Positions 11,518 through 39,890 are shown, counted from the first letter of the stretch. The stretch: 64,000 bases of DNA from a virus (IMGVR_UViG_3300011268_001497:1-64000); one strand, 5' to 3'. The notes: generated by a model not told the origin, from the letters alone. Numbers and translations: made by a program.

Positions 11518-11520
11518 CCA

Positions 11521-12818: not shown

Positions 12819-12872
12819 GTTGACAATCTACTGTCCGGGTGCTATGATTGGGGAGATTCATAGGATTATTCC

Positions 12873-13382
12873 ATGCCTCTCAAGCACACACCGGGAAAAA
12901 GACGCACAAATAAAACTCTGACCGAGTTTGCGATCCATGCTGTCGAGGAATATCTCGGCGGATCAAGGGAGCGCTACTGGGAAAAAGGAAACACAGCGGC
13001 CTATGTCGACGACGATATGAGCCTTGTTGTAACACTCGTTGATAAACCCATCCTAAGGATCAAGCGGAAGGACAACAAGCCTGAGCAGGTCAACGTCTAC
13101 GCTGGTGGCGTCTATGACGAGAACGGTAACCCCACGAACCTAACGAGAGAACGACTGAACGGACTACTGGATGCATTGGGTGCGGCACAGGTTATCCCTC
13201 AAAACGTAAGAGTGTCTTATGACCCTTCTTATTCGATGTGCTACCTCCTTCAAGGTGAACAAAGAGTGGCTCTGAATAAAAATTACTGCACCATGGTTGG
13301 GGTCAAGTCACATCCAAACGATTTCTGCATTGGCGACATGGAAATTGTTTCAAGATCAAGGAAACATAATATATCTCAATAA
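12873..13382 (+). CDS. hypothetical protein (169 aa)
   Basis: ORF track; clean ATG after the terminator/intergenic gap. Confidence 0.55.
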   Translation: MPLKHTPGKRRTNKTLTEFAIHAVEEYLGGSRERYWEKGNTAAYVDDDMSLVVTLVDKPILRIKRKDNKPEQVNVYAGGVYDENGNPTNLTRERLNGLLDALGAAQVIPQNVRVSYDPSYSMCYLLQGEQRVALNKNYCTMVGVKSHPNDFCIGDMEIVSRSRKHNISQ

Positions 13383-19065: not shown

Positions 19066-19361
19066 TCCTCAACCCCTTCAAAGATGGCTTCGTTTTTGTT
19101 TCCGCAGATCCTTAACACCCTTCTGGCATCGAAGCTTCGCCAAGTAGTCTTCCCCTCCTCCTTGTTGCTGATCTCACGAATCCGAAAGATATTCGGATCG
19201 CTACAAGCAGTCCCAGTTCCCTTGATCTCATTGACATCCTTTGGGTTGAATGTCATATCACGAACGTCTCCGTTCTTCTTTACAAATTTAACAGAAACAA
19301 ACCGAGATCCAGATCGTTTGATGATGTCACGAACAATGTCACGACGTGGTGTTCCTTCCAT
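19062..19361 (-). CDS. hypothetical protein (99 aa)
   Basis: ORF track; operon packing. Confidence 0.5.
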   Translation of the reverse strand: MEGTPRRDIVRDIIKRSGSRFVSVKFVKKNGDVRDMTFNPKDVNEIKGTGTACSDPNIFRIREISNKEEGKTTWRSFDARRVLRICGNKNEAIFEGVEE

Positions 19362-19364
19362 GGT

Positions 19365-19592
19365 TCAGCTCCAGCAGTCAGCAATGAATTGGACAACCTG
19401 ATCAAGCGTGTCAAAGTCAGGACTAACCTGCAACTCAGTTGACCGCTCAATAACCTGATAAAAGGCCCCAGGCTGTCCTTCGAAACAGACTACGACCTCC
19501 TTGCCCTGCTTCCGCAGGCTCCAGTTGATCGACTCAAGTGTGGCTTGCATTGAAGGGGAATCCTCCCGTGTGACTCCCCTATCATACACCAC
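19365..19592 (-). CDS. hypothetical protein (75 aa)
   Basis: ORF track. Confidence 0.5.
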   Translation of the reverse strand: MVYDRGVTREDSPSMQATLESINWSLRKQGKEVVVCFEGQPGAFYQVIERSTELQVSPDFDTLDQVVQFIADCWS

Positions 19593-19630
19593 CTCAAGCC
19601 CCTGTCAAGTAGTTGGCTAGGTATAAATAC

Positions 19631-19906
19631 TCATTCTTCGACATCGTCGAACGTATTGATCAGCGCATGCTCCCCAATAACGGCTAATGCCGTCTTGTTC
19701 CATGCCTTCGCAGCCTCGATCTCGTCCACAAAGGCTCCGATATACCACCGCCTTCCCTGGAACGTCAAAGCAGCCCTGTAAGGCTTCTTCGGATCATTGT
19801 TCTTCGAAACACCCTTGTACTTGCTGAACTGAGGCTTGTTCCGTGGCCTGCTCGACAGCTTGATGTAGTGCTCCTTCTCGTCGACATTCCTGAAATAGTA
19901 GCCCAT
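19631..19906 (-). CDS. AP2-domain DNA-binding protein
   Basis: ORF 19631..19924 (GTG) or ATG at 19906; YKGVSKNNDPKKPYRAALTFQGRRWYIGAFVDEIEAAKAWNKTALAVIGEHALIN is an AP2/ERF-type domain. Confidence 0.7.
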   Translation of the reverse strand: MGYYFRNVDEKEHYIKLSSRPRNKPQFSKYKGVSKNNDPKKPYRAALTFQGRRWYIGAFVDEIEAAKAWNKTALAVIGEHALINTFDDVEE

Positions 19907-19992
19907 CTTTAAAACAAAAGACACGCAACTATAGACCCCGACCCCCTTAGCCTTAAAGATTTTATTTTTTCTTAATTATCCAGTAGCCCTTA

Positions 19993-20304
19993 TTAACCAT
20001 CACCTCTGAACCACCTCCTCTTATTCCCAAACCACTCCGCCAATGTCACAGGATCCTGTGGCCCTACCAGATGATCGCTCGGATCTGGCTCCCCTAAATC
20101 TAAAGCCTGACAAAACTCATCCATCTCACTTACCTCTTCCCCTTGGACAGCAGCTCTCCTCGCCTGTCTTAACATCTTGTCAACAGTTGGATTCCTATCC
20201 GCCCACTTCTGCACCCACGTCATATCACTGAACTCTACAGGAGCTCCTAATCGAATCCTCTCACAAATAAATTCAACTCTCTGGCGGGTTTGTGATGAAA
20301 GCAT
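19993..20304 (-). CDS. hypothetical protein (103 aa)
   Basis: ORF track; first gene downstream (leftward) of the long non-coding region. Confidence 0.5.
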   Translation of the reverse strand: MLSSQTRQRVEFICERIRLGAPVEFSDMTWVQKWADRNPTVDKMLRQARRAAVQGEEVSEMDEFCQALDLGEPDPSDHLVGPQDPVTLAEWFGNKRRWFRGDG

Positions 20305-20350
20305 TCCCGCTTTCCGGCTTGCATATTATTCCTTATCCACTTCTCAAACC

Positions 20351-20378
20351 TGTCTCATGAGACCCTCTTGATGAGACA
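20351..20378. promoter_or_regulatory. inverted repeat TGTCTCAT-N12-ATGAGACA upstream of the leftward gene 19993..20304
   Basis: Perfect 8-bp arms at 20351-20358 and 20371-20378, about 50-75 bp upstream of the ATG at 20304. Confidence 0.4.
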
Positions 20379-20474
20379 AAACCATCCCTTCACCCCTTTC
20401 TCAACTCTCTCAAAAGGGTATCTTTAAACTACCCCTAAGGGGTATCCTCAGACAACCCTTTTACCCCAAACGCT

Positions 20475-20538
20475 TTAATGTAATATTATTATCTAGAGTA
20501 TATATATTAATATATATATATTAACTAGATACTACTAG
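20475..20538. repeat. AT-rich palindromic block A
   Basis: TTAATGTAATATTATTATCTAGAGTATATATATTAATATATATATATTAACTAGATACTACTAG; (TA)n arms around a TTAA centre. Confidence 0.7.
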
Positions 20539-20595
20539 CTCTTATCAACTTGGTTAACAAGAACAACAGCCAATACTAAAAATCCTTCCTACCAT

Positions 20596-20614
20596 TGTCC
20601 TCCTTCGGAGGACA
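20596..20614. other. perfect 8-bp hairpin TGTCCTCC-TTC-GGAGGACA followed by TTTCCTTCCTTCCTTTCC
   Basis: Read directly at 20596-20632. Confidence 0.6.
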
Positions 20615-20884
20615 TTTCCTTCCTTCCTTTCCGCCAGCTAATTTTTTTTCTAAAAAAACCTTTTCTCTGTACCCTACACCCCATGGTTTTATCTGAAAGC
20701 CTCTGAGAGGTGTCTAGAAGCCCCTGGAAGACCCTTCTACTACCGCTTGGCTATCTTTCCCTATCCATACCCCCTAGAACCCTGTTACAGAGCCTTACAG
20801 ACCTAACCCCTCTCGCAACACCTAAAACCCTCCCTCAAATCCCTAAAACTGAAAATCATTCTCATCCCTCCAGTACTCATACGA

Positions 20885-20921
20885 CCCTCACCCCCTATAC
20901 CCCCTTAATCCCTTAAATCCC
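20885..20921 (-). other. G-quadruplex-type motif on the minus strand (five C3-5 tracts on +)
   Basis: CCC-TCA-CCCCC-TATA-CCCCC-TTAAT-CCC-TTAAAT-CCC; all loops 3-6 nt, satisfying G3+N1-7 x4 on the complementary strand. Confidence 0.6.
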
Positions 20922-21035
20922 TTCCAATATCTACATCCCCTAATCCAATTAACTACTTACTTACCCCCTTAACTACCCATTTTGATAAGGTTTAATCAGT
21001 TAATCTGATCATTCCTAGTACTACTAACCAGATAA

Positions 21036-21200
21036 GGTAATATGACCTAGTAACTAGTATATATATATTATAATATATATATTAATATATATAATCTAGT
21101 TATAGTATTTAAATACTCTGTATTTAAATACGATTAATCTAGTTATTCTAGTTAACTAATCTATCTAGTAATATTAATCTAGTTATTCCTAGTAATAACC
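21036..21200. repeat. AT-rich block B with iteron-like direct repeats and tandem palindromes
   Basis: TAATCTAGTTAT at 21092, 21135 and 21175 (17-mer ATTAATCTAGTTATTC shared by the last two; diverged copy TTAATCTGATCATTCCTAGTA near 21000); perfect palindrome GTATTTAAATAC at 21105-21116 and 21120-21131; (TA)n run 21056-21095. Confidence 0.75.
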
Positions 21201-21228
21201 CCCTCCCATAACCCTCTCATCCCCCTCT

Positions 21229-21441
21229 TTAACCCCATTTTTGAGGCCTTTCAGCCCCTCGCTGACGGTCAATCCAAAACAGAAAATGCCGCCGAACAGA
21301 CATCCGATTTCCCTTTTTCCCGTCGGCTGATTTTCCCTTTTTAAGATTTCTCAAAATGAGACGCGATGAGACGATGTCCAGGTCTTTGAGTACCTGTCTC
21401 AAACACAGGTACGCAGGAATTGGACCGACCCAGTCCCACAT
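21229..21441 (-). CDS. doubtful hypothetical protein (70 aa)
   Basis: ORF 21229..21558, ATG at 21441; upstream part of the track ORF runs through repeat element E1, so only the short form is plausible. Confidence 0.3.
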   Translation of the reverse strand: MWDWVGPIPAYLCLRQVLKDLDIVSSRLILRNLKKGKSADGKKGNRMSVRRHFLFWIDRQRGAERPQKWG

Positions 21442-21531
21442 CGCCTGACGGCGTGATCGCGAATAATAAGATATAATGATATCGTTATGCCAAGATCTAG
21501 ACCGACCCCGACCGAGTCCTCGCGACGGCGC

Positions 21532-21566
21532 GATCGTGAATGGCGCAAATGCGGCCATTCACGCTC
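21532..21566. repeat. cassette palindrome E1
   Basis: GATCGTGAATGGCGCAAATGCGGCCATTCACGCTC; CGTGAATGGC / GCCATTCACG 10-bp perfect arms. Confidence 0.8.
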
Positions 21567-21570
21567 ACCA

Positions 21571-21592
21571 AATAAAAAAGCCCCGAAGGGCT
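21571..21592 (-). terminator. rho-independent terminator (leftward)
   Basis: Minus strand reads AGCCC-TTCG-GGGCT followed by TTTTTTATTT; overlaps the stop of 21591..21779. Confidence 0.75.
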
Positions 21593-21779
21593 AAGAAGAT
21601 CTTATTCTCCAAGATTCGACCCAATAATGATCATCTGGGCATTCTCGATTCATTTCCTCTATGTGTTCTCTTGCTGCTGACATATTGTCGTAGATATCGC
21701 ATAGCCCCGTGTCGAAAGATTGAACAACGAACACCTCTTTACCGACGGGCCTGAGGACAATAATATCAGAGTTTGTCAT
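21591..21779 (-). CDS. hypothetical protein (62 aa)
   Basis: ORF 21591..21980, ATG at 21779 (14-nt overlap with upstream gene); MTNSDIIVLRPVGKEVFVVQSFDTG... Confidence 0.45.
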   Translation of the reverse strand: MTNSDIIVLRPVGKEVFVVQSFDTGLCDIYDNMSAAREHIEEMNRECPDDHYWVESWRIRSS

Positions 21780-22122
21780 AGCGCCAGCCCCAGCGTGGAA
21801 CGTAAGTGTAAAGATACTCGCAGCCCATGTTAAATGCGAATCGAGCCATTTCGCCGGCAGTAAGCCTACGGGGTTGGCAGTCAAGATCGCCTCTGTCGAT
21901 ATAGTATCTGGGGCCAACCTCCATAACGTTACCATTCCAATCAGTGGTGGCGCTAAGTGTAGACATGCTGCCAGGTGCAATCATCTTGCGGGCCTTCTTT
22001 GCCGTATCGTAACTGGTGGTAAGAATCGCCATTTGGTGCTCTGGATAGCCGTCATAATGACAGTAGACAATGTCATAAGTTGCATCCGGATTGCGTACAG
22101 CAATTGCAGAACGTGTTCCCAT
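21766..22122 (-). CDS. hypothetical protein (118 aa)
   Basis: ORF track; MGTRSAIAVRNPDATYDIVYCHYDGYPEHQ. Confidence 0.55.
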   Translation of the reverse strand: MGTRSAIAVRNPDATYDIVYCHYDGYPEHQMAILTTSYDTAKKARKMIAPGSMSTLSATTDWNGNVMEVGPRYYIDRGDLDCQPRRLTAGEMARFAFNMGCEYLYTYVPRWGWRYDKL

Positions 22123-22124
22123 GA

Positions 22125-22280
22125 TTAACCCTCGATAACTTGAATGTTTTCCTCGTCTAGCCAGTCGTCGAATTCTGGCAGATGAAGATAATCGTCGCCG
22201 TAGCCGATTGGTGAAGGATCGAAGTTGTCGGCGAATTCTTTGTATTCAGCCTTGGCCTGTTCGGCAGTCAACTGGCGCAT
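22125..22280 (-). CDS. possible small acidic protein (51 aa), below ORF-track cutoff
   Basis: Hand translation MRQLTAEQAKAEYKEFADNFDPSPIGYGDDYLHLPEFDDWLDEENIQVIEG*; fills the gap between 22284 and 22122 exactly. Confidence 0.4.
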   Translation of the reverse strand: MRQLTAEQAKAEYKEFADNFDPSPIGYGDDYLHLPEFDDWLDEENIQVIEG

Positions 22281-22283
22281 GAT

Positions 22284-22526
22284 TCAGTCTCCTTCGTTCC
22301 AGAACAGTTCGTATTCAGCGAAGCATCGAATGGCGTTATCGAGATCACCGTAGTGGTACTCCCTTTGAACGTAGAAGTTCTTCTCTACAGCTACCGGGTC
22401 GATGCAGACACCGTACTTTTCTTTCAGTCCGTCGGCGACATAATCGCAGAACTGAGCGAAGCTATCCCAAACGAGTTCCCAGTAGTCAGGGGATTCGAGG
22501 GAGCGGGGGTCGTGGAGGCAGGTCAT
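22284..22526 (-). CDS. hypothetical protein (80 aa)
   Basis: ORF 22284..22556, ATG at 22526 directly preceded by the conserved leader. Confidence 0.55.
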   Translation of the reverse strand: MTCLHDPRSLESPDYWELVWDSFAQFCDYVADGLKEKYGVCIDPVAVEKNFYVQREYHYGDLDNAIRCFAEYELFWNEGD

Positions 22527-22557
22527 GGGAGTGTTCCCTTGCGACTCCCTAATCATA
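22527..22557 (-). promoter_or_regulatory. conserved -10/leader cassette
   Basis: Minus strand: TATGAT-tagggaGTCGCAAGGGAacacTCCC-ATG. Confidence 0.6.
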
Positions 22558-22608
22558 ACGCATCAGCAGCCGGTCAGCCACTCAAGAGCAAATCTTTACA
22601 AAGCGCGT

Positions 22609-22649
22609 GAGCGTGAGTAAGGCCTCGCTTCGCGACGTTACTCACGATC
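22609..22649. repeat. cassette palindrome E2
   Basis: GAGCGTGAGTAAggcctCGCTTCGCGacgTTACTCACGATC; 9-bp arms CGTGAGTAA / TTACTCACG. Confidence 0.8.
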
Positions 22650-22675
22650 AAAATAAAAGGGGCGCTTGGCCCCTT
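22650..22675 (-). terminator. rho-independent terminator (leftward) after 22681..22866
   Basis: Hairpin AAGGGGC-GCTTG-GCCCCTT; minus strand followed by TTTTATTTT. Confidence 0.75.
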
Positions 22676-22680
22676 GTTTA

Positions 22681-22866
22681 TTATTTAATTTTGCAGATCC
22701 TATCTGATAGTTCCTCTAGCCTGTCGGGCTTAAAGTGCCACTTAAGATCTGATAATAGTTCCGGTTCGATAGGTTGATCCTGGACAATTTTCCAGAGAAT
22801 ATCTAAACCGTTGATAATCATTGTCCATTCATTCTTGTTAACAATGATGTGGCGACCTTCATTCAT
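22681..22866 (-). CDS. hypothetical protein (61 aa)
   Basis: ORF 22681..22905 (GTG); ATG at 22866 preceded by GGAG and overlapping the upstream small ORF (ATGAATGA). Confidence 0.5.
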   Translation of the reverse strand: MNEGRHIIVNKNEWTMIINGLDILWKIVQDQPIEPELLSDLKWHFKPDRLEELSDRICKIK

Positions 22867-23011
22867 CTTCAAGCTCCGTGTATTTGTAGGCCTGGATTGT
22901 TTCACCTAGCTTTATGTCTAGGTTTTGGTAGATAGCGTCCGGGATCCATTTTCGGGGATGGGCCGCATTATCATCAAGAGATAGGACGACCCTGATTTCA
23001 TACCGTTTCAT
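22859..23011 (-). CDS. possible small protein (50 aa), below ORF-track cutoff
   Basis: Hand translation MKRYEIRVVLSLDDNAAHPRKWIPDAIYQNLDIKLGETIQAYKYTELEDE*; ATGA overlap with the stop of 23008..23976. Confidence 0.4.
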   Translation of the reverse strand: MKRYEIRVVLSLDDNAAHPRKWIPDAIYQNLDIKLGETIQAYKYTELEDE

Positions 23012-23976
23012 CGTGCTAGCTCTAGAGCGGATTCGTGGGCTTTTTTGATAATCAGTGAGCCAGAGCCAAACAGAGCTGAATGCATACGGTGCTGGTTTGC
23101 ACCCTTGCTGCGCTGCGATGATTCCACCTCAGTTACAGCATTCAGGCCGTGGTAAACCGTACCGCGAACCCCGGCAATATCCATGCCGATGCCATAATGC
23201 CAGGCATGTTCCAGCTTTTTCCATTTCTGGGACAGATCTTCAATGCGACCAGGGCGGTCAACTTTAGCGGGGATAGTGTAGAGGGTTTCCAGCCAATGGC
23301 GATACATATCGAATGACATAGGGGCAGATTGCATTGCCCGATAATCATCGACCACGCTAACGAAGGATTGCCGGGCCATATCAATGGTTTGCAGAACACG
23401 GTCAATTTGCGCGATGTCGTTAGCGGTATGCTTAATGGTGAACTGTTTACCAGTACGGTTAGCGTCAGACTGAGCGAAGCCCAGTGTATTTGCGCACACT
23501 ACGCGAACATTTGTGAACATGCCGCCGAATGCTGTTTTGCCATCGTGGCCGAGGTATCCCACAATATTGCGGTGGATCTTGTCACCAGGCACAACCTCAT
23601 GATCGCTACCCCGCAGGCGGGCAGTGAAGGCCACCTTGGCGCCACCTTTCAAGACGATAACCGTATCCATATCAACCTCCTCGCGAATCGCCTCAGCGAA
23701 GCGCAACAGTTGATTGTTTTGGATAGGCTTGTAATGATCGGAGGCCCTGCCTAGGATCGTGCGGGTATCAGGCCGCCAGATGACCCGGTCATTCGGCATA
23801 TCAATATATTCGCCGTCAGCCGGGTTGGCTGCCATGCGGATAGCCTGGACAGGAAATAAAGCACCGGCGCGGGTAAAGGCTTCGCTTGCTGGCAGCGTGC
23901 CCTCTACAACTTCACCAAGACCATGCCATGCGGCCTGGCCATTCATCATGATGCCGGAAGTGAACTCGTGAGCCAT
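23008..23976 (-). CDS. DUF932-like phage/plasmid protein
   Basis: 322 aa; N-terminal GQAAWHGLG and central NVRVVCANTLGF resemble the DUF932 / TIGR03299 family as I recall it; not searched. Confidence 0.6.
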   Translation of the reverse strand: MAHEFTSGIMMNGQAAWHGLGEVVEGTLPASEAFTRAGALFPVQAIRMAANPADGEYIDMPNDRVIWRPDTRTILGRASDHYKPIQNNQLLRFAEAIREEVDMDTVIVLKGGAKVAFTARLRGSDHEVVPGDKIHRNIVGYLGHDGKTAFGGMFTNVRVVCANTLGFAQSDANRTGKQFTIKHTANDIAQIDRVLQTIDMARQSFVSVVDDYRAMQSAPMSFDMYRHWLETLYTIPAKVDRPGRIEDLSQKWKKLEHAWHYGIGMDIAGVRGTVYHGLNAVTEVESSQRSKGANQHRMHSALFGSGSLIIKKAHESALELAR

Positions 23977-24009
23977 GGGAGGATTTCCTCTCGGGACCCC
24001 TTTACTATA
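23977..24009 (-). promoter_or_regulatory. conserved -10/leader cassette (variant)
   Basis: Minus strand: TATAGT-aaaggGGTCCCGAGAGGAaatcCTCCC-ATG. Confidence 0.55.
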
Positions 24010-24069
24010 CAGCAGACTGAGCCAGAACGCAGTGGAATCACAAAACTTAACAAAGGACTGGCGCCGTGT

Positions 24070-24110
24070 GACCGTGATAAACGTCGCTTCGCGAGGCCTT
24101 TATCACGATC
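24070..24110. repeat. cassette palindrome E3
   Basis: GACCGTGATAAAcgtCGCTTCGCGaggccTTTATCACGATC; 9-bp arms; interior is the inverse of the E2 interior. Confidence 0.8.
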
Positions 24111-24120
24111 TCGATCCTTA

Positions 24121-24151
24121 AATATAAAATAGGGGACTGATTTAGCCCCCT
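24121..24151 (-). terminator. probable terminator (leftward) after 24160..24891
   Basis: Minus strand: AGGGGGCTAAATCAGTCCCCT followed by ATTTTATATT. Confidence 0.6.
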
Positions 24152-24159
24152 AAAGTAAT

Positions 24160-24891
24160 TCAAACTAGTTGGACATGTTTCTTGCCGGAACCGTGTGCTT
24201 CGACCCATATATCTTGCTTACCGCCATCGCATAATTTGCAAGTGATACATTGTGCCATTGATTGCTCAATTGTGGCCGGGCATTGCTTCCCGAAAGAATT
24301 ATTTTTAGCGCCGACAGGTAGCACGCTAAATGTATGCCAGCCATGAGCAGTTGCCTCCAGATAATCATTGAAACCATCGCAAGATGCCTGAAAATATTTT
24401 TTATAAAGTTGGGCGAATTGTTGCCGCCATTGGTGAGTGTACCCGGTATGCGCCTTGGCGAAGCGATTGAAGAACTCAAAAACAGAGAAGGGAATCAGCG
24501 CAGGGTCACCATAAGCTCCCCAGCGGATTGAACGCCCTTTAAGCATCTTCTGTACGGCTTCAATGTTATCAAGGGCCGGCGGATAGCAGCCGCGATGGTA
24601 TGCTTTCCAGATGCTATTTGGCGACTGGCCAACATTAACATAGCAGGATCTTTTTTTTGTTTCAGGATTTTTTCTGTGGATACAATCGCCGCAGATAGAA
24701 TAATCCGCACCGATCTCAATAGCCTCAACCGGATTAATGTCCCGCAGCATAATCCAGACCTGGCACATATTGCCCGTCTTGCGATTCGTGCTTTCTAAAG
24801 TAACAATAGCGACACACTCTTTACCATCAATCAGGGAGGGGAATTCGGCGAGGACGTAACCCTTGGGCGCTTGCTTTTTGTTGGATTGCAT
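24160..24891 (-). CDS. hypothetical Cys-rich protein (243 aa)
   Basis: ORF track; cysteine clusters ICGDCIH, CYVN, CITCKLCDG suggest metal binding; no family recognised. Confidence 0.55.
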   Translation of the reverse strand: MQSNKKQAPKGYVLAEFPSLIDGKECVAIVTLESTNRKTGNMCQVWIMLRDINPVEAIEIGADYSICGDCIHRKNPETKKRSCYVNVGQSPNSIWKAYHRGCYPPALDNIEAVQKMLKGRSIRWGAYGDPALIPFSVFEFFNRFAKAHTGYTHQWRQQFAQLYKKYFQASCDGFNDYLEATAHGWHTFSVLPVGAKNNSFGKQCPATIEQSMAQCITCKLCDGGKQDIWVEAHGSGKKHVQLV

Positions 24892-25090
24892 TTTGCTGTT
24901 TGTTGTTGAGATGATTTAGGACACGGTAAGCCACTTCAAAAAATAAATATCCCACAAAAACCAGGGGAATATATAAAGAAATGGCGGCGATGATGGGGAA
25001 GAAAATGAACGCGACTGATTGAACAATCGGAGCCGGTACGGTTAAGCCTTCCTCTGGAATGATGTAAACAGGTGGCGCCGGTGGTGGCAT
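24827..25090 (-). CDS. hypothetical small membrane protein (87 aa)
   Basis: ORF track; two hydrophobic helices (VAFIFFPIIAAISLYIPLVFVGYLFF); preceded by leader variant; 65-nt overlap with the next gene makes the 3' part uncertain. Confidence 0.4.
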   Translation of the reverse strand: MPPPAPPVYIIPEEGLTVPAPIVQSVAFIFFPIIAAISLYIPLVFVGYLFFEVAYRVLNHLNNKQQNAIQQKASAQGLRPRRIPLPD

Positions 25091-25124
25091 AAGGGGAGTG
25101 TTCCCGTGTTGCTCTGTCAGTGTA
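25091..25124 (-). promoter_or_regulatory. -10/leader cassette (variant)
   Basis: Minus strand: TACACT-gacagagcaacacGGGAacacTCCCctt-ATG. Confidence 0.45.
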
Positions 25125-25235
25125 GCCTAAACATCCGGCCAGCGCAAGACAACGCCTATTCATCGCCGGCATGGTATAAGGGTATAACGCTACTGTTTTG
25201 GAATGGTTAGAAATCGTTACAGAAGGAGGCTGCGT

Positions 25236-25276
25236 GAGCGTGATCAACGCTTCGCGGAGCGACGTTGGTCACGATC
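25236..25276. repeat. cassette palindrome E4 (in the divergent region between leftward and rightward units)
   Basis: GAGCGTGATCAACGCTTCGCGgagcgaCGTTGGTCACGATC; arms CGTGATCAACG / CGTTGGTCACG with one G-T. Confidence 0.8.
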
Positions 25277-25303
25277 AGGAAACTTAAAGCAGAAATATTT
25301 TTT

Positions 25304-25477
25304 ATGATGGATTTCGAAGACAAGATCAAGCTCGTCAGAGAAAAAGCACAGGCATATGTCGACATTAAAAAGGCGGAAGCCTTTGAGGCGCAGATTAAAG
25401 CGTATGAAATGCAGTTAGAAAGAATCAAGCAGAACCCGTCTTTGATGGAACCAAAGTCATCGTCTAAAATGAACTGA
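25304..25477 (+). CDS. hypothetical coiled-coil protein (57 aa)
   Basis: ORF 25265..25477 (TTG inside E4); ATG at 25304 preferred. Confidence 0.45.
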   Translation: MMDFEDKIKLVREKAQAYVDIKKAEAFEAQIKAYEMQLERIKQNPSLMEPKSSSKMN

Positions 25478-25524
25478 TATAGCGATTGGTATCGGTTTGA
25501 GAAAAGATGTCCGCCTGTCGGCGT

Positions 25525-25562
25525 GACCGTGAATGGCGGTCGCACGACCATCGTTCACGATC
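25525..25562. repeat. cassette element E5
   Basis: GACCGTGAATGGCGGTCGCACGACCATCGTTCACGATC followed by AATTTTTATTA. Confidence 0.8.
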
Positions 25563-25602
25563 AATTTTTATTACGGCCCTCGCTTTCGGGTGGGGGCTTT
25601 GC

Positions 25603-25633
25603 TATGATTAAGAGGTCCCAAGGGAGTAGTCCC
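25603..25633 (+). promoter_or_regulatory. conserved -10/leader cassette
   Basis: TATGAT-taagagGTCCCAAGGGAgtagTCCC-GTG; preceded by GC hairpin GGCCCTCG..CGGGTGGGGGC. Confidence 0.6.
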
Positions 25634-25831
25634 GTGACTTCCAATCAGCTGAACGCCCAATGCGCCGAGATCCTTGATGCAATGGAGGTTCTGGTTGCTC
25701 GTTTCGACAGTCTGCGCAATCTGGCTAGTGATGACGCGTGGGATGCGGCATGCACTGAGAAGCCCTATCTCGACCTGCTTTCAGATATAGAGTACGAGGT
25801 TGAACAGGCTCTGGAGGCGATTCGCGTTTGA
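25634..25831 (+). CDS. hypothetical acidic protein (65 aa)
   Basis: ORF 25523..25831; upstream part of the track ORF runs through E5 and the leader, so GTG at 25634 right after the leader is preferred. Confidence 0.45.
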   Translation: MTSNQLNAQCAEILDAMEVLVARFDSLRNLASDDAWDAACTEKPYLDLLSDIEYEVEQALEAIRV

Positions 25832-25864
25832 TCGTGACTGGCGGTACGACCATCGTTCACGCTC
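25830..25864. repeat. cassette element E6
   Basis: GATCGTGACTGGCGGTACGACCATCGTTCACGCTC; the TGA stop of the preceding ORF (25829-25831) is part of TGATCGTGA. Confidence 0.8.
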
Positions 25865-25908
25865 AGATAATTTTTGTTTCAGGCCTTGCTAAAGGGCTCG
25901 GCCTTCTG

Positions 25909-25939
25909 TATTCTTGAAAAGTACCAAGGGAATCATCCC
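25909..25939 (+). promoter_or_regulatory. conserved -10/leader cassette
   Basis: TATTCT-tgaaaagTACCAAGGGAatcaTCCC-ATG; preceded by hairpin AGGCC..GGCCT. Confidence 0.55.
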
Positions 25940-26125
25940 ATGAACTCTGCACTTCTGGATCGCGGCCTCCTGCCTTTCGACAAGCTCAACATTGCCTTCT
26001 GCGCCCGCCAGCGAGCCGTGCTCAATACGCGGACTAGCGAGGAGTTCGAGGGCGAATACAACACGGCTCACCTGTGGATGCGCCATACGCTGCAAACCAT
26101 GGGAGGCAGGAACTGGAGCTACTGA
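25940..26125 (+). CDS. hypothetical protein (61 aa), paralogue of 27316..27528
   Basis: ORF 25874..26125, ATG at 25940 after leader; FDKLNIAFCARQRAV matches FDWLNLAHCATQRAM in the minus-strand ORF 27316..27528 (10/15 identical). Confidence 0.5.
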   Translation: MNSALLDRGLLPFDKLNIAFCARQRAVLNTRTSEEFEGEYNTAHLWMRHTLQTMGGRNWSY

Positions 26126-26137
26126 AACTGCGAGCTT

Positions 26138-26173
26138 GATCGTGACTGGCGCCTGCGACCATCGTTCACGCTC
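26138..26173. repeat. cassette element E7
   Basis: GATCGTGACTGGCGCCTGCGACCATCGTTCACGCTC; nearly identical to E6 except the centre. Confidence 0.8.
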
Positions 26174-26198
26174 ACTAAATACCAACGAGGGAAACCCC

Positions 26199-26432
26199 AT
26201 GACCGTCACTGCTAAGTCCACCAAGGCTGAGATCCTGGCCGCCTACGAGGCACTGAAAGCTCAGCAAGAATCCCAGACCATCACTTGGCCCCTTGTCGTC
26301 AGCACAGCCCGCACCGTAGCCCGCGAGACTCACCTGCTGGTTGTCGACGTTCAGAAGGGCGTAACCCTTGCAGCGCAATGGATCTCGGGAATAGTTGCCG
26401 AGCTGACCAAACCAGTGCTACACTCGGCTTGA
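26199..26432 (+). CDS. hypothetical protein (77 aa)
   Basis: ORF 25992..26432, ATG at 26199 preceded by caacgaGGGAaaCCCC (short leader variant) 25 nt after E7. Confidence 0.45.
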   Translation: MTVTAKSTKAEILAAYEALKAQQESQTITWPLVVSTARTVARETHLLVVDVQKGVTLAAQWISGIVAELTKPVLHSA

Positions 26433-26466
26433 TCGTGATTGACGCCTGCGGCCATTGTTCACGCTC
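26431..26466. repeat. cassette element E8
   Basis: GATCGTGATTGACGCCTGCGGCCATTGTTCACGCTC; preceding stop TGA (26430-26432) embedded in TGATCGTGA. Confidence 0.8.
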
Positions 26467-26509
26467 AGAAAACTTTTATTACGGCCTCGCTCAAGCGGGG
26501 CCTTTGCTG

Positions 26510-26540
26510 TATGATGGAGGAGTCCCAGGGAATAATCCCG
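26510..26540 (+). promoter_or_regulatory. conserved -10/leader cassette
   Basis: TATGAT-ggaggaGTCCCAGGGAataaTCCCg-ATG; preceded by 8-bp hairpin GGCCTCGC-TCAA-GCGGGGCC. Confidence 0.6.
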
Positions 26541-26819
26541 ATGTCACGCACCACCGACTTCATCATCGATCTTGAGGATGCCCAGCTTGCGGCTGACCTT
26601 GCCTCGTATCAAACTGCAGGCCAGCTCTGCGTTCTCAGCAATCTCGTCTGGCGTGCCGGTCGACAAGAGGGTCCGTCTCTCGATGTGCCGTTGGCTGGAA
26701 TCGAACAGCACTGGATCGATGCCATGCGCGACCAGCTCCGGGAAGCACTGGTTTGCCTGGATGAACTGCAGGCTGCGAACGAGGCTCTGGAGTGTGAGAG
26801 AGGTCTCGCTACCGTCTGA
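26541..26819 (+). CDS. hypothetical protein (92 aa)
   Basis: ORF 26439..26819, ATG at 26541 after leader; N-terminus MSRTTDFII resembles MSATTDHIL of 26980..27246. Confidence 0.5.
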   Translation: MSRTTDFIIDLEDAQLAADLASYQTAGQLCVLSNLVWRAGRQEGPSLDVPLAGIEQHWIDAMRDQLREALVCLDELQAANEALECERGLATV

Positions 26820-26849
26820 TCGTGACGCCTGCGGCCATTGTTCACGCTC
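26818..26849. repeat. cassette element E9 (5-nt shorter copy of E8)
   Basis: GATCGTGACGCCTGCGGCCATTGTTCACGCTC; preceding stop TGA (26817-26819) embedded. Confidence 0.8.
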
Positions 26850-26932
26850 ATTAGCATAACTTATCAATCAGGGCCGACCGATCAGGATCGCTTATCATTA
26901 CAAAAGTTCACAAAAACTTTTTCACTAAAAAG

Positions 26933-26956
26933 CCCCCAGTACAGATGTACTAGGGG
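26933..26956. terminator. probable bidirectional terminator between convergent units
   Basis: CCCCCAGTAC-AGAT-GTACTAGGGG flanked by AAAAAG upstream and TGAATTGTTT downstream. Confidence 0.6.
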
Positions 26957-26979
26957 TGAATTGTTTATACTTAGCAGGC

Positions 26980-27246
26980 TTAGCGTTGTTGTTGATTAAG
27001 GTGTCGGTTGAGTGTAAACAATTGGGCGTGCCAATCAGTGATGGCGTCGACGCAAGATCCTACCGAATCGATGTCAAGATCTGTGCAGGGCATCAGATTA
27101 TTTATCAGCATTGTTGAAACGTCAAGCAATGCCATTCGGTAGAAGAACCTCTCTGAATCATTGAGCGAAGCGTACATGGGATTTGCTTCGATTAGCTGTT
27201 CGATCAGTTCAGCCTGAGAGAGGATGTGGTCGGTGGTTGCGCTCAT
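26980..27246 (-). CDS. hypothetical protein (88 aa)
   Basis: ORF 26980..27312, ATG at 27246 directly after leader. Confidence 0.5.
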   Translation of the reverse strand: MSATTDHILSQAELIEQLIEANPMYASLNDSERFFYRMALLDVSTMLINNLMPCTDLDIDSVGSCVDAITDWHAQLFTLNRHLNQQQR

Positions 27247-27277
27247 GGGATTGTTCCCTTGGGACTCCTTTATTATA
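27247..27277 (-). promoter_or_regulatory. conserved -10/leader cassette
   Basis: Minus strand: TATAAT-aaaggaGTCCCAAGGGAacaaTCCC-ATG; preceded by hairpin AGGGG..CCCCT (27284-27305). Confidence 0.65.
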
Positions 27278-27315
27278 GAGGGTAGGGGCCACTGGTGCGA
27301 CCCCTGTAACAAGTC

Positions 27316-27528
27316 TTAGTACTTTGCTGCCTTCTTCGCCAGCGCTCGGGCTGCGTGATATTCGCTGTAGAATCCGTCATGAGACAGGCCGGCCTGAGCC
27401 ATGGCCCGTTGGGTTGCGCAGTGTGCGAGGTTGAGCCAATCGAACAGGCTCAGTTCTTCGTCTGTCTTATCACCGCACCGCCAGACGGCGAGGTTGAGAT
27501 CAGCGAGGTGGGAATCAGTGAGGGCCAT
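27316..27528 (-). CDS. hypothetical protein (70 aa), paralogue of 25940..26125
   Basis: ORF 27316..27639 (GTG), ATG at 27528 after leader; shares FD.LN.A.CA.QRA and EY..A motifs with 25940..26125. Confidence 0.5.
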   Translation of the reverse strand: MALTDSHLADLNLAVWRCGDKTDEELSLFDWLNLAHCATQRAMAQAGLSHDGFYSEYHAARALAKKAAKY

Positions 27529-27581
27529 GGGGATCTCCCCTTGGGACCCCTCTAGTATAGCGCAATGGATGGGCGTGTCAA
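27529..27581 (-). promoter_or_regulatory. near-consensus sigma-70-type promoter plus conserved leader
   Basis: Minus strand: TTGACA-N16-TATACT-agagGGGTCCCAAGGGGagatCCCC-ATG. Confidence 0.7.
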
Positions 27582-27627
27582 CAATGTTACGAGATGTGAC
27601 GTGGTGGCGTGGTGGTGGTGGATGGTG

Positions 27628-27659
27628 TAGGATGGGCACATCACCAAGGGAGCATTCCC
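27628..27659 (+). promoter_or_regulatory. -10-like hexamer plus conserved leader (rightward)
   Basis: TAGGAT-gggcacatCACCAAGGGAgcatTCCC-ATG; back-to-back with the leftward promoter at 27554-27581. Confidence 0.5.
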
Positions 27660-27893
27660 ATGAGACCCTTCCTCCTTGCCGCCGCCTTCTCCTGTGGATC
27701 TGCCATGGCAGGGGTGTTCTACCTCAGCAGCATGGCAACCCCCATCATCAGCGAAGCTCGGGCAGAGAAGCTCGGTGCATACTGCGAGGCAGGTGTGCCC
27801 GAAGCATGCGAGATCCTAGCGGCCGAGTCGAATGGACAGTGTGCCGGACCCTCGGGCAGTGGCTGCCTCTATAACAGTAGCGTTATGAGGTGA
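27660..27893 (+). CDS. hypothetical secreted Cys-rich small protein (77 aa)
   Basis: ORF 27609..27893, ATG at 27660 after leader; signal-like MRPFLLAAAFSCGSAMA; 6 further cysteines. Confidence 0.5.
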   Translation: MRPFLLAAAFSCGSAMAGVFYLSSMATPIISEARAEKLGAYCEAGVPEACEILAAESNGQCAGPSGSGCLYNSSVMR

Positions 27894-27904
27894 TGTGCAG
27901 CACG

Positions 27905-27924
27905 GGTGGTACAGGCGTACCACC
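27905..27924 (+). other. perfect 8-bp hairpin GGTGGTAC-AGGC-GTACCACC after 27660..27893
   Basis: Read directly; T-run (TTTTTT) lies about 20 nt downstream, so terminator function is uncertain. Confidence 0.4.
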
Positions 27925-28000
27925 CCCCACCCCCGAAAATTCCTTTTTTAGTGCCAAAGCAACCCCCTCAGGTTTTCTGAGAAAATTTCCGAAACCGAAA

Positions 28001-28159
28001 ATGCCACTTTCAAAATTGACCACCAAGTTTTTGATTATTATTTTTATGATGACGTTATTTAGTGGAGTAGCGGAGGCTAAGCGAGAGAAGAGTGAGCAGA
28101 AGTGGAGGAGTTGTTGGGTGACGAGGGGCAATGTAAGGACGAGGGTTATTTGTCAATAA
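28001..28159 (+). CDS. possible small secreted basic peptide (52 aa)
   Basis: ORF 27890..28159, ATG at 28001; MPLSKLTTKFLIIIFMMTLFSGVAEA then KREKSEQKWRSCWVTRGNVRTRVICQ; a stop-free + frame is unusual in C-poor sequence where all three stops are frequent. Confidence 0.3.
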   Translation: MPLSKLTTKFLIIIFMMTLFSGVAEAKREKSEQKWRSCWVTRGNVRTRVICQ

Positions 28160-28316
28160 GGGAGGAGAGGTGATTTAGTTTAAGGAGGATATAGGAGAGG
28201 AGAGGGGTACCGATGAGGGAGGAGTAGAGAGCGATACGGATTTCATGTTGGCGGATTTTATCGTCCATTTGGCGTAGGAGCCAGGGAGTTATGGTGGGGT
28301 CAGAGGAGGTTTCGAT

Positions 28317-28341
28317 GGGGTCTGGGCGACGGGATTGGGGG
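28317..28341 (+). other. canonical G-quadruplex motif on the + strand
   Basis: GGGG-TCT-GGG-CGAC-GGG-ATT-GGGGG. Confidence 0.65.
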
Positions 28342-28654
28342 TTAGAGGTCATGATCAGGCGATAGAGCGAAGGTAGTCGCGTTGTTTTGGGGTAAGGAGA
28401 GGGAGGAGGCGGAGGAGGAGTTTTTTAGAGGGATCTAGGTCTAGGGTTGAGTACATAGTGGATAGGATTTGTTTAATTGCGATAGTGTAAGAGGATTGGA
28501 TAGCGAGGTAGAGGGCGAGGGTGAGGGTTAATTGTTGATGCATTGGATAGGAGTAGAGTTATATGATTAATTCTAGGGCAATATTAGGAAAACTAGTGGT
28601 TATTTACGAATAAAAGTATGAATATTGGAAGTATAAGGGGAGTAAGTAGGCATT

Positions 28655-29056
28655 ATGGCGACATTAGACACTAGTTATGGGTGGGTTGCCGGTGATGTGG
28701 AGCGTATTTTGCTTGCTCTTGACTTAGGGATTGGTGGTTATACGATTAGTGAGATGACGGTGTGTTGTAATAAGTTAGGGGAGACGAGTTCAACGCTTGT
28801 TGGGAGGGTGAGAGAGCTTTTAGGGGAGTATGACGATGCGATTGAGGTGCAAAAGGGGTTAGGAGTGAGTGAGGATGCGGGGAGGACGTTAATCAAGGCT
28901 GATGTATTGGAGTGGGAGGTAGATAAGGGGGGTCGATTTGAGGCAATTATGAGGGAAAAGGGAAGGATTAATGATGAATTGCTTAAGATATTTGCATTTT
29001 GTCCGCTAGCATTTGGCGGTTCCAGTAGAAATAGCACGTCACTTATCAGGTCTTAG
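28655..29056 (+). CDS. hypothetical protein (133 aa) encoded in C-depleted DNA
   Basis: ORF track; a 133-codon stop-free frame on the C-poor strand is very unlikely by chance; protein is Gly/Glu/Leu/Val-rich as expected from C-poor codons. Confidence 0.6.
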   Translation: MATLDTSYGWVAGDVERILLALDLGIGGYTISEMTVCCNKLGETSSTLVGRVRELLGEYDDAIEVQKGLGVSEDAGRTLIKADVLEWEVDKGGRFEAIMREKGRINDELLKIFAFCPLAFGGSSRNSTSLIRS

Positions 29057-29058
29057 TC

Positions 29059-29238
29059 ATGATTCACCCCGAGAATGGAGAGGGGTTAAATGAGATTATT
29101 GATTTTGTAGAGAGGCAGGAGATGATTGATGTATGGTGTAAGGGATGTAGTATGTTTCGTAAGGCAAATAGTGCTTATGCGAAGTATTTAAATGGAGAGA
29201 TTAATGGATGTAGGTTTTGCAGAGAGGATAATGCGTAA
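29059..29238 (+). CDS. possible small zinc-ribbon-like protein (59 aa), below ORF-track cutoff
   Basis: Hand translation MIHPENGEGLNEIIDFVERQEMIDVWCKGCSMFRKANSAYAKYLNGEINGCRFCREDNA*; CxxC...CxxC. Confidence 0.4.
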   Translation: MIHPENGEGLNEIIDFVERQEMIDVWCKGCSMFRKANSAYAKYLNGEINGCRFCREDNA

Positions 29239-29239
29239 A

Positions 29240-29347
29240 ATGCTGACAGAGGAGGATTTAGAGGGATTAATGGAGAGGGCTAAGAGTCTTAAGATGATGG
29301 AGTTATTTGAGGAGCCGAGCAGTTATGAGGATGAGGAGGAGGAGTAA
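29240..29347 (+). CDS. possible very small acidic protein (35 aa)
   Basis: Hand translation MLTEEDLEGLMERAKSLKMMELFEEPSSYEDEEEE*; starts 1 nt after previous stop. Confidence 0.3.
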   Translation: MLTEEDLEGLMERAKSLKMMELFEEPSSYEDEEEE

Positions 29348-29417
29348 AGATTTCGTTAACAATTGAGGTAAACTGAATAAGTCCAAAAGTTTGGGCTTGT
29401 TCTTACTTATTACTTCA

Positions 29418-30497
29418 ATGACTGCTACACTTTCACGCCAGCAGCCAGTAAACCAATGGGACTCATTCTGCGAATGGGTAACGAGCACTTCAAACCGTCT
29501 TTATGTGGGTTGGTTTGGTGTTTTGATGATTCCTTGCTTGCTAGCTGCGACGACTTGCTTTATCCTTGCGTTCATTGCTGCCCCACCGGTTGACATTGAT
29601 GGCATCAGGGAGCCCGTTGCTGGTTCGTTGCTTTATGGCAACAATATTATTTCTGGGGCTGTTGTACCCTCTAGTAACGCTATTGGTTTACACTTTTATC
29701 CAATTTGGGAGGCGTCGGGTTTAGAGGAATGGTTATATAATGGTGGGCCTTATCAGTTGGTTGTATTTCATTTTCTGATTGGTGTTTTTGCATATGCTGG
29801 TCGGGAATGGGAGCTTAGCTACCGACTTGGTATGCGTCCTTGGATTTTTGTTGCCTACCTCGCCCCTGTTGCTGCTGCTACTGCAGTGTTCCTCGTCTAT
29901 CCGTTTGGACAGGGTTCCTTCAGTGATGGTATGCCTCTTGGCATTTCAGGAACATTTAATTACATGCTTGTTTTTCAGGCGGAGCATAATATCCTCATGC
30001 ACCCCTTCCATATGCTTGGGGTGGCTGGTGTATTTGGGGGTTCTTTGTTCTCTGCTATGCATGGATCTTTGGTCACTTCTAGTCTCGTTCGCGAGACGAC
30101 TGAAGAAGTAAGTCAGAACTATGGCTACAAATTTGGGCAAGAAGAAGAGACGTATAACATTGTTGCCGCTCATGGCTACTTTGGCCGTCTTATTTTTCAA
30201 TATGCTTCTTTTAACAATAGCAGGAGCTTACACTTCTTCCTTGCTGCCTGGCCTGTTGTTGGCATTTGGTTTGCTGCTCTTGGTGTTAGCACCATGGCTT
30301 TCAACCTGAATGGCTTTAATTTCAACCAATCGCTTCTTGACAACAATGGTCGGGTGGTTAATACTTGGGCTGATGTACTTAATAGAGCTAACCTTGGTTT
30401 TGAGGTAATGCATGAGCGCAATGCTCATAACTTCCCTCTTGATCTTGCTTCTGCCAGCACGGTTAATGTTGCATTAACTGCTCCTGAAATTGGTTGA
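29418..30497 (+). CDS. psbA: photosystem II reaction-centre protein D1
   Basis: ORF 29391..30497, canonical start MTATLSRQQ at 29418; near-complete match to D1 throughout ([53 protein letters not shown] plus C-terminal extension); uninterrupted. Confidence 0.97.
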
Positions 30498-30878: not shown

Positions 30879-31015
30879 AGAATCAGGATACTGGCAAGCT
30901 GCTTGAAATTTGCTATTTAACGTGGCCAAATTTAACTCCACCACAATCTAAAGAAAAGATTAAGTTGGTGCCTGGTATTCCACGAGACATTGCACCACCG
31001 GCTAAGGCGGGGTAA
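30875..31015 (+). CDS. possible small protein (46 aa)
   Basis: Hand translation MKNQDTGKLLEICYLTWPNLTPPQSKEKIKLVPGIPRDIAPPAKAG*; ATGA overlap with previous stop. Confidence 0.3.
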   Translation: MKNQDTGKLLEICYLTWPNLTPPQSKEKIKLVPGIPRDIAPPAKAG

Positions 31016-31034
31016 TATCCGTGGGGACGAGGGA

Positions 31035-31060
31035 GGCTCCGGGAAACCGGGGCCTTTTTT
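31035..31060 (+). terminator. rho-independent terminator
   Basis: GGCTCCGG-GAAA-CCGGGGCC followed by TTTTTT. Confidence 0.75.
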
Positions 31061-31104
31061 ATGTCTTGACGGATCTATTAGACTGGGTCGACCTCAGAAT
31101 TGCC

Positions 31105-31725: not shown

Positions 31726-31749
31726 GTCTACGCACTACGAGGTTCAACA

Positions 31750-32106: not shown

Positions 32107-32120
32107 TCCGATTAGCTATC

Positions 32121-32593: not shown

Positions 32594-32629
32594 ATTTTCA
32601 CCCAAAACCCTTCTTCATTTTTCTTGAAA

Positions 32630-39859: not shown

Positions 39860-39890
39860 GTTGGCAGACTAATTTAGCTTTTTACGGCTA

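Follow-up and report, generated by a model that had tools for sequence, protein, structure and literature searches.

Several kinds of short repeated elements placed just ahead of phage genes have been described, and two of them come closest to the element considered here: the promoter-early stem-loop (PeSL) cassettes of the T4-type phages RB49 and phi1 (Arbiol et al. 2010, PMC2839356), and the start-associated sequences (SAS/ESAS) of cluster K mycobacteriophages (Pope et al. 2011, PMC3203893). In this study, we analyzed a 64,000-nt stretch of viral DNA, IMGVR_UViG_3300011268_001497:1-64000, which as a whole is called the window and gives the numbering for all coordinates. Judging from its genes, the phage is a relative of the Synechococcus siphovirus S-CBS2. 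About a dozen of its small genes of unknown function share one ready-made unit consisting of a promoter and what appears to be a 19-base leader. The leader contains a small hairpin that is kept by compensatory substitutions, and the unit seems to be part of a larger portable cassette.

The PeSL cassettes are composites of about 100 bp, comprising a stop codon, an AT-rich tract, a stem-loop, a sigma-70-like promoter, a Shine-Dalgarno (SD) sequence and an ATG, and their stem-loop often lies between the -35 and -10 hexamers or overlaps them. The units in the window resemble them in this composition, in their location within a hyperplastic ORFan region, and in having the junctions of insertions, deletions or replacements inside the units (here three, by sequence). 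However, the putative leader in the window is fixed at 19 nt, with a covarying hairpin predicted to lie over the SD-like sequence and the start codon, whereas PeSLs are without a defined leader hairpin; the window cassette has an extra inverted-repeat (IR) element at its 5' edge, which PeSLs lack; and the phage is a cyanobacterial siphovirus with zero sequence similarity to PeSLs. In this way, the modular shuffling known for PeSLs in T4-type coliphages would be extended to the siphoviruses of cyanobacteria, which have been little studied.

The SAS, too, are short asymmetric motifs located a few nt before starts; they have a core that resembles an SD sequence, and their ends, one G-rich and one C-rich, are complementary. 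They occur in 11-19 copies per genome, in the non-structural part and before unrelated genes; an imperfect inverted repeat with a variable spacer lies upstream of about half of them; and the host genomes lack the motif, just as no cyanobacterial genome matched the motif of the window (an analogy of position only). The sequences are unrelated, as a search of the window for the SAS consensus, GGGATAGGAGCCC, allowing up to 2 mismatches, gave 0 matches. In the SAS, moreover, the SD sequence lies between the GGG and CCC ends and not within a stem, and the motif is not firmly tied to a -10. For the ESAS repeats, Pope et al. obtained no evidence in favor of pairing, in contrast to the compensatory changes seen in the leader and IR hairpins of the window. 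The SAS have been without an assigned function since 2011, and still were in 2025; a hairpin covering the SD sequence and the AUG, with natural compensatory mutants, would offer a concrete structural hypothesis for start-codon-associated phage motifs.

Hairpins that occlude a ribosome-binding site are known from the MS2 replicase operator, the early transcripts of T4 e and soc, and the Synechocystis hsp17 RNA thermometer. In these cases, the SD sequence is in one arm and the start codon is in or near the other, and initiation needs melting. They are single-gene devices, triggered by coat protein, by a late promoter inside the hairpin and by heat, respectively. The leader in the window resembles them in that a stem with SD-like purines appears to be kept by selection (for the inner pairs), its reach to the start codon being predicted, but the design is repeated at a dozen genes and the loop is unconserved. 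The stoperators of cluster A mycobacteriophages are likewise many short asymmetric intergenic sites oriented with transcription; however, they are (as cited in PMC3203893) duplex-DNA repressor sites with a conserved sequence, whereas the motif in the window conserves pairing instead.

The promoter-leader unit and its hairpin

The motif is real. Searching the window for CCAAGGGANNNNTCCC with up to 2 mismatches gave 18 matches, compared with 4.4 ± 2.3 in shuffled sequences (maximum 11; 0 of 100 reached 18), a count that is partly inflated because the near-palindrome also matches the opposite strand. There are 8 strong and 4 weaker copies, at 12.8 kb and 19.5-27.7 kb, and all strong copies lie within 19.5-27.7 kb, between the replication/packaging and the structural modules. 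An earlier note on this DNA had listed ten start codons with a conserved leader, from 22526 to 27660, and all of them have the element in the gene direction. Two copies were absent from that list, one at the start codon 19550 on the minus strand (TTGACA-N16-TATGAT) and a diverged one at 12843-12875 on the plus strand. The looser copy placed at 54434 does not belong to the family, as it lacks a -10, leaves 7 nt between its hairpin and the ATG, and is missed by the covariance model.

The unit is composed, in order, of TAnnnT, exactly 6 nt, and, beginning with an invariant G, GUC-C-CA-A-GGGA-N4-UCCC-A-UG. All 22 copies that align without gaps agree at T1, A2 and T6 of the hexamer, at G13, which lies exactly 7 nt past it, in CAAGGG and CCC, and in the TG of the start codon; the inner bases of the hexamer, by contrast, are free to vary, as are the 6-nt spacer and the 4-nt loop. 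A -10 of the form TAnnnT, its second base being A and its sixth T, is the signature of the sigma-70 family, and transcription usually starts at a purine 7 nt downstream. We infer that the invariant G is +1 and that the transcript is GUCCCAAGGGA-N4-UCCC-AUG, with a 19-nt leader. This agrees with the previous proposal of a very short 5' untranslated region (UTR) common to the units, which would begin about 7 nt after the -10. The statement that a -10 hexamer stands 5-14 nt ahead of each copy holds for most copies as to the hexamer, but the spacing is really tighter (8 copies have exactly 6 nt between the -10 and GTCCC, and the copy at 27660 has 7 nt ahead of the motif), and the copy at 26199 is without any -10.

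At least 4 of 6 matches to TTGACA, at a distance of 16-18 nt, were present in 17 of 38 copies, and perfect ones in 8 of 38, compared with a background of 13% and 0.3% among all TAnnnT sites of the same loci. Only one unit had been credited with a clear -35; two have a perfect TTGACA, at 27581-27576 and 19608-19603, and these units gave the two sigma-70-like promoters scoring 11/12 in a promoter scan. GC stem-loops with T-rich tails overlap the promoter, by sequence, at 25634, 25940, 26541, 27246 and 12873 and in many relatives, the T-rich tail running into the -10; in other copies a putative terminator is located further upstream. Where such a stem-loop is present, TTGCCA or TTGCTA is often found in its 5' arm, at a distance of exactly 17 nt from the -10. 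A -35 of the canonical or TTGCCA-like kind is thus common among the copies, and it frequently lies within the GC hairpin. A sigma factor lacking region 4 is not required to explain them, and these counts do not support the idea of a GC hairpin replacing the -35 and hinting at the phage sigma.

For the leader, RNAfold predicted a GGGA-N4-UCCC stem in nearly every copy, which was often lengthened, when a few coding bases were added, by CA:UG (the UG being that of the start codon) across an A.A mismatch, and RNAalifold gave ((.((((....)))).)) on the alignment alone. The CA:UG extension is thus predicted to pair two start-codon bases. It cannot covary because the AUG is fixed, and covariation backs only the four inner GGGA/UCCC pairs. 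As the metagenome scan had forced the motif, less biased copies were sought by anchoring on the -10 and GTCCCAAGG only, and then with a covariance model. The stems recovered included GGGG/CCCC, GAGG/CCUC, AGAGG/CCUCU, GAGA/UCUC and GGGU/ACCC. Among 39 distinct copies, standard pairs filled 98.7% of the cells compared with 94.1 ± 0.5% after shuffling, and 11 cells were changed on both sides compared with 1.8 ± 1.2, both counted on the model-based alignment (a MAFFT alignment of all copies misplaced the indel-bearing variants). Three of the four inner pairs covary, and the signal collapses when the partner is slid by 1 to 3 columns. When the 5' half of one copy was joined to the 3' half of another, the mean folding energy went from -5.16 to -4.49 kcal/mol (P ~5e-5).

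The strongest single argument for the hairpin comes from compensated sequence differences between the leaders of orthologous genes. The stem is GGGA/UCCC in the window for three gene families; in related phage contigs it is GAGA/UCUC (L017) and GGGU/ACCC (L048) in the 25940 family, GGGG/CCCC (L017) in the 27246 family, and AGAGG/CCUCU (L048) in the 22526 family. In the 26199 family, GGG/CCC in the window corresponds to GAGG/CCUC and GAGA/UCUC in relatives. This last family has no -10, and the IR element is followed directly by the hairpin and the ATG. Since promoter-less copies keep CCAAGRGR-N4-YCYC-ATG and lose the GTC, the GTC can be assigned to transcription initiation and the hairpin to the start codon. 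The purine arm is in every case the 5' one, which is therefore under a double constraint, for pairing and for an SD-like sequence. Two earlier suggestions, that a GGGA-N4-UCCC hairpin holds the only SD-like purines and that the leader is more than a plain ribosome-binding site, are supported by these compensatory changes, and the earlier interpretation of the leader is partly supported as a whole. Its second partner for GGGA, the upstream UCCC, was rejected: it would leave a loop of 2 nt, shows no covariation with the GGGA arm, and stays UCCC when GGGA becomes GGGG, GAGG or GAGA. Rfam gave nothing in 19000-29500, either at gathering scores or even at E up to 1.

The larger cassette and its distribution

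The point missed by the earlier note is that the unit is, from sequence comparison, part of a larger portable cassette with what looks like gene exchange between phages. The cassette of about 110 bp consists of the stop codon of the previous gene, an IR element, an AT-rich tract upstream of the promoter (AAnnTTTTGTTAC-like), a GC stem-loop, the promoter and the leader. The IR element (GAnCGTGA, a variable hairpin of 16-31 nt, and TCACGnTC) is present in 9 copies in the window, between 21532 and 26850, and in dozens in relatives, and it often begins inside the stop codon of the previous open reading frame (ORF), as in tTGATCGTGA. Its possible roles are those of a 3' stabiliser, a processing site or a recombination site. 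Members of this family measure 33-47 nt, with a conserved base (in which TCACGnTC may be followed by ACGC) and covarying inner stems. They stand right after stop codons and 40-60 nt before the next -10 (about 110 nt for the 25090 unit), and they also occur in L012, L017, L048, L061, L067, L102 and L107.

The ORFs preferentially served by the units are ORFans. Nine cassette ORFs had no Pfam match and no credible PHROG match, the single PHROG match (E = 0.004) being to a family of unknown function. From DNA comparison with L017 and L067, a small sample of three junctions, it appears that genes are acquired, lost and exchanged at the units among related phages. The segment 27278-27526, with a 70-aa gene (27316-27528), is absent from L017; the junction is inside the leader unit, and a single L017 leader unit (1504-1538) aligns to both flanking units of the window, 27241-27277 and 27523-27559. 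The segment 26470-26823, with gene 26541 and its promoter, is also absent from L017; here the junction is inside the IR element, and one L017 IR element (1932-1967) aligns to both IR elements flanking the segment. Homology between the window and L067 (26134-26539) stops at the ATG after the leader, where a different gene comes next, and the homolog of the 26541 gene is located elsewhere in L067. Gene order differs among L012, L017, L048 and L067.

A search for the motif in relatives and in the host, which had been recommended, succeeded in its first part, as related copies were present on about 14 contigs, metagenomic or viral, that come from related phages. The exact motif with a -10 six nt upstream was found in 2 of 7 viral-contig matches and 17 of 104 metagenome matches. 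All matches bearing the architecture are on contigs of 40-59% G+C (40-53% for the metagenome ones), and these contigs encode homologs of window genes from the unit region with 35-89% identity; about 85 of the 104 metagenome matches were discarded as chance occurrences on high-G+C contigs. When 185,579 bacterial and archaeal species were searched, each represented by one genome, none of the 25 matches was cyanobacterial and none had the architecture. The canonical full motif was not found in S-CBS2 or S-CRES3, both of which have looser relatives of it, and in the literature the motif was not found described for S-CBS2-like phages. In S-CRES3 (31000-33000, minus strand), the small genes gp63-gp68 share the leader CAAAGGAC-N3-GATCC-ATG and a CATACT -10, which suggests lineage-specific versions of the cassette idea.

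Explanations compared

The explanation that we favor, with a probability of about 0.55, is a portable expression cassette of about 110 bp in which the 19-nt leader hairpin damps initiation in cis and the units also act as homology patches. The motif would be the 3' half of this cassette, preceding small ORFan genes, and the cassette would end, in order, with a GC stem-loop often containing a -35-like hexamer, a TAnnnT -10, a 6-nt spacer, G(+1)UC, and C-CA-A-GGGA-N4-UCCC-A-UG. RNA polymerase with the host primary sigma factor would start at the invariant G, giving a 19-nt 5' UTR that folds into the 4-bp stem backed by covariation plus the CA:UG pairs across the A.A mismatch predicted by RNAfold and RNAalifold. 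The SD-like purines would then be the 5' arm, and the U and G of the start codon would be in the 3' arm. At about -5 to -7 kcal/mol, the hairpin would be weak; it would most likely act in cis, giving uniform, damped translation initiation, and it might also keep the start region G+C-rich and structured, hence less exposed to nucleases, the remaining phage genes having A/T-rich, SD-less starts. As the units are nearly identical, they could also be homology patches for gene insertion, deletion and replacement, a mechanism to which the breakpoints point. The host lineage is thought to depend little on SD pairing, and phage genes with a strong, structured SD-like leader would therefore be a useful probe of translation start in picocyanobacteria. 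The promoter-leader unit of about 35 nt is also a compact candidate expression part for Synechococcus.

Several observations weigh against this explanation. The pair counts come from an alignment that had been fitted to the model, several copies share a common descent, and most pyrimidine arms will pair with a G-rich one. The median minimum free energy (-20..+12) was -6.1 kcal/mol for cassette starts compared with -3.45 for 22 other gene starts in the window (p = 2e-4), but the contrast is confounded by G+C (0.57 vs 0.45); the other starts are A/T-rich, mostly without SD-like purines, and less structured. The start codon is predicted to be unpaired with a probability of about 0.5, a value barely lower than in other genes (p = 0.06). 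Because the hairpin is weak, the difference in accessibility marginal and the comparison confounded by G+C, the hairpin would be a modest barrier and not a lock. In three or four copies (19550, 25090, L011 13006), the hairpin is 3-11 nt from the start codon, so that the AUG cannot be occluded and the purines are too distant to serve as an SD sequence. An A.C mismatch is present at the loop-closing pair in two copies (L007, L102), and pairing does not account for the fact that GUC(C) is so well conserved at the 5' end. In the L011 copy (13006-13052, plus strand), the promoter and the GGGAauuaUCCC hairpin are kept and the ATG is 11 nt further downstream; in this copy, the hairpin holds its distance to the promoter and not to the start codon.

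An ordinary promoter and ribosome-binding site might look the same at each gene because of recent cassette duplication or gene conversion, with the pairing being incidental to composition. The cassettes are clearly paralogous over about 110 bp, and a G-rich arm finds a partner in nearly any pyrimidine arm, as shuffled copies still have 94% paired cells. However, the spacer, the loop and the inner -10 bases have been randomised while the motif positions are invariant, in independent orthologous leaders an A of the 5' arm faces a U and a U faces an A, double changes are far above those in shuffles, and arm swapping reduces stability. We disfavor this explanation and regard it as quite improbable. 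About equally improbable is a DNA site at +1 to +20, either an operator for a phage repressor shutting off early promoters (stoperator-like) or the target of a recombination protein. Consistent with such a site, the TCCC-AA-GGGA dyad overlaps the inferred start site, the purine-rich spacer often forms GGAGTCC or GGGGTCCC palindromes, between-genome junctions lie inside the unit, and Arbiol et al. speculated about a protein binding the GGGG...CCCC stems of PeSLs (PMC2839356). Nevertheless, the compensatory changes preserve pairing and not sequence, the purine arm is always 5' (which suggests a strand-specific, RNA constraint), promoter-less copies retain the hairpin beside the ATG, and the spacer palindrome is found in only about half of the copies. 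In addition, half-sites 6 bp apart are too near for the usual helix-turn-helix dimer.

If the RNA is what matters, the hairpin might be an operator for a trans-acting RNA-binding protein, of phage or host, or for a small RNA (sRNA), switching all cassette genes jointly. T4 RegA and the MS2 coat protein are translational switches of this kind at single sites, and the MS2 replicase operator, with the SD sequence in the 5' arm and the AUG in the 3' arm, has the same anatomy. One structure stands before at least ten unrelated ORFs and is conserved across phages with 35-85% identical proteins, and GUC(C) and the A opposite the A of the AUG are conserved without a pairing reason. On the other hand, the loop is wholly unconserved and the stem sequence is free to change if pairing is kept, which speaks against sequence-specific recognition by a protein or an sRNA, and a candidate RNA-binding protein was not found. 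S-CRES3 encodes RNase III-like, SPT5-like and RpoD-like proteins, but homologs of these are absent from the window, so that they could not be linked to the elements. We consider such an operator rather unlikely, and unlikely as well its wider form, in which a factor reading the 5' GUCC tail and the stem would switch all cassette ORFans as a translational regulon and the flanking IR elements would be folded recombination sites, allowing integron-like capture with immediate expression. It is very improbable that the block after the -10 is instead a promoter part for the phage's own sigma factor (2462-3085), possibly without region 4. Pfam finds only Sigma70_r2 in this protein, a good -35 is missing in about half of the copies, and the spacing from the -10 to the motif is rigid. 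But 8 of 38 copies have a perfect TTGACA at 16-17 nt and many others have a hexamer resembling TTGCCA, the hairpin part persists without any promoter, and the structural genes have their own upstream motif, ACTAGTAMAGCTT, as a better candidate for the phage sigma. Moreover, the promoters of marine picocyanobacteria commonly have a -10 only.

Individual units and genomic setting

Two units lie outside 22527-27659 to the left, both with a TTGACA hexamer. The diverged one at 12820..12875 (plus strand) has a terminator T-run followed by TTGACA-N17-TATGAT-tgggga-GATTCATAGGAttatTCC-ATG (covariance model 9.4 bits), and the one at 19548..19608 (minus strand) has TTGACA-N16-TATGAT, aggggA and GTCACACGGGAggatTCCCcttcaATG, with the start codon 5 nt past the hairpin (a weak match, 9.1 bits). 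On the minus strand, the unit at 22524..22557 (TATGAT-taggga-GTCGCAAGGGAacacTCCC-ATG; 49.6 bits) heads an operon, that at 23974..24009 precedes a DUF932 gene and has the stem GAGG/CCUC (21.1 bits), and the weaker one at 25088..25124 (TACACT-gacaga-GCAACACGGGAacacTCCCcttATG), whose ortholog is at 3705-3742 in L017, has its start codon 3 nt past the hairpin. Four copies on the plus strand follow: 25603..25636 (TATGAT-taagag-GTCCCAAGGGAgtagTCCC-GTG; 47.9 bits); 25909..25942 (TATTCT-tgaaaa-GTACCAAGGGAatcaTCCC-ATG; ortholog stems GAGA/UCUC and GGGU/ACCC); the promoter-less hairpin and start at 26187..26201 (GAGGGAAACCCC-ATG), right after an IR element (ortholog stems GAGG/CCUC and GAGA/UCUC); and 26510..26543 (TATGAT-ggagga-GTCCCAGGGAataaTCCCg-ATG; 34 bits). 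The GC stem-loop at 26483..26502 (plus strand) lies between the -35 and -10 positions and is followed by TTTGCTGTAT, which is terminator-like; similar ones are present at about 25574-25597 and 25881-25905. The minus-strand unit at 27244..27277 (TATAAT-aaagga-GTCCCAAGGGAacaaTCCC-ATG) gave 54.1 bits, and its L017 ortholog has GGGG/CCCC. The unit at 27526..27581 (minus strand; TTGACA-N16-TATACT-agaggg-GTCCCAAGGGGagatCCCC-ATG) has a compensated stem, and diverging from it is the plus-strand unit at 27628..27662 (TAGGAT-gggcaca-TCACCAAGGGAgcatTCCC-ATG; a partial match, 19.1 bits).

The nine IR elements start with 21532..21567. Those at 22609..22650 and 24070..24111 are upstream of the 22526 unit (about 50 nt from its -10) and the 23976 unit, and another is at 25236..25277. 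The element at 25525..25563, 40 nt before the -10 of the 25634 unit, is inverted relative to the next four, which are at 25830..25865 (the TGA stop of the upstream ORF being within tTGATCGTGA), 26138..26174, 26431..26467 and 26818..26850, the last two forming the edges of the 26470-26823 segment absent from L017.

The large terminase (906-2429) has 74-79% identity with those of S-CRES3, S-CBS2 and S-CRES1/2, all Synechococcus siphoviruses, and further genes of the window include a class II ribonucleotide reductase, a portal-like protein, a major capsid protein and psbA. The phage sigma factor (2462-3085, plus strand) is 61% identical to S-CRES3 gp21, with no region 4 detected by Pfam. In the structural module, ACTAGTA(C/A)AGCTT is found at 39868, 48477, 51091, 57595 and 59030 (plus strand), about 10-12 nt before the ATGs at 39891, 48500, 51114, 57615 and 59053; by its position, it is a candidate late promoter or start-context motif, and possibly the target of the phage sigma. 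The unit-bearing region consists of small ORFs on both strands, with packaging and replication genes on one side and psbA and structural genes on the other. GC skew swings strongly across it, from -0.32 (20000-22000) to +0.44 (28000-30000), which marks the switch of the coding strand around the cassette region. Zero matches were obtained with megablast of window 22000-28000 against 50,697 phage records, with tblastn using the ORF 49187-51082, and with the DUF932 protein as a query for related loci in viral contigs.

One paper proposed that cyanosiphoviruses are without psbA/psbD (PMC6157547). The psbA gene of this S-CBS2-like siphovirus (29391-30497, plus strand) is full-length (Photo_RC, 9e-89), and psbA is also present in the relatives L011 and L052 (88-89% aa identity). 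A glutamine riboswitch (Rfam RF01739) is located at 34590-34700 on the plus strand, with 40.8 bits compared with a gathering score of 35. Three adjoining tRNA genes begin with one at 11445-11520 (plus strand) that has a CUA anticodon, is labelled Pyl by ARAGORN and is amber-suppressor-like (Rfam tRNA, 67.8 bits); the other two are Met and Leu-UAA, and more tRNAs are at 16020-16092 and 35012-35079, both on the minus strand.

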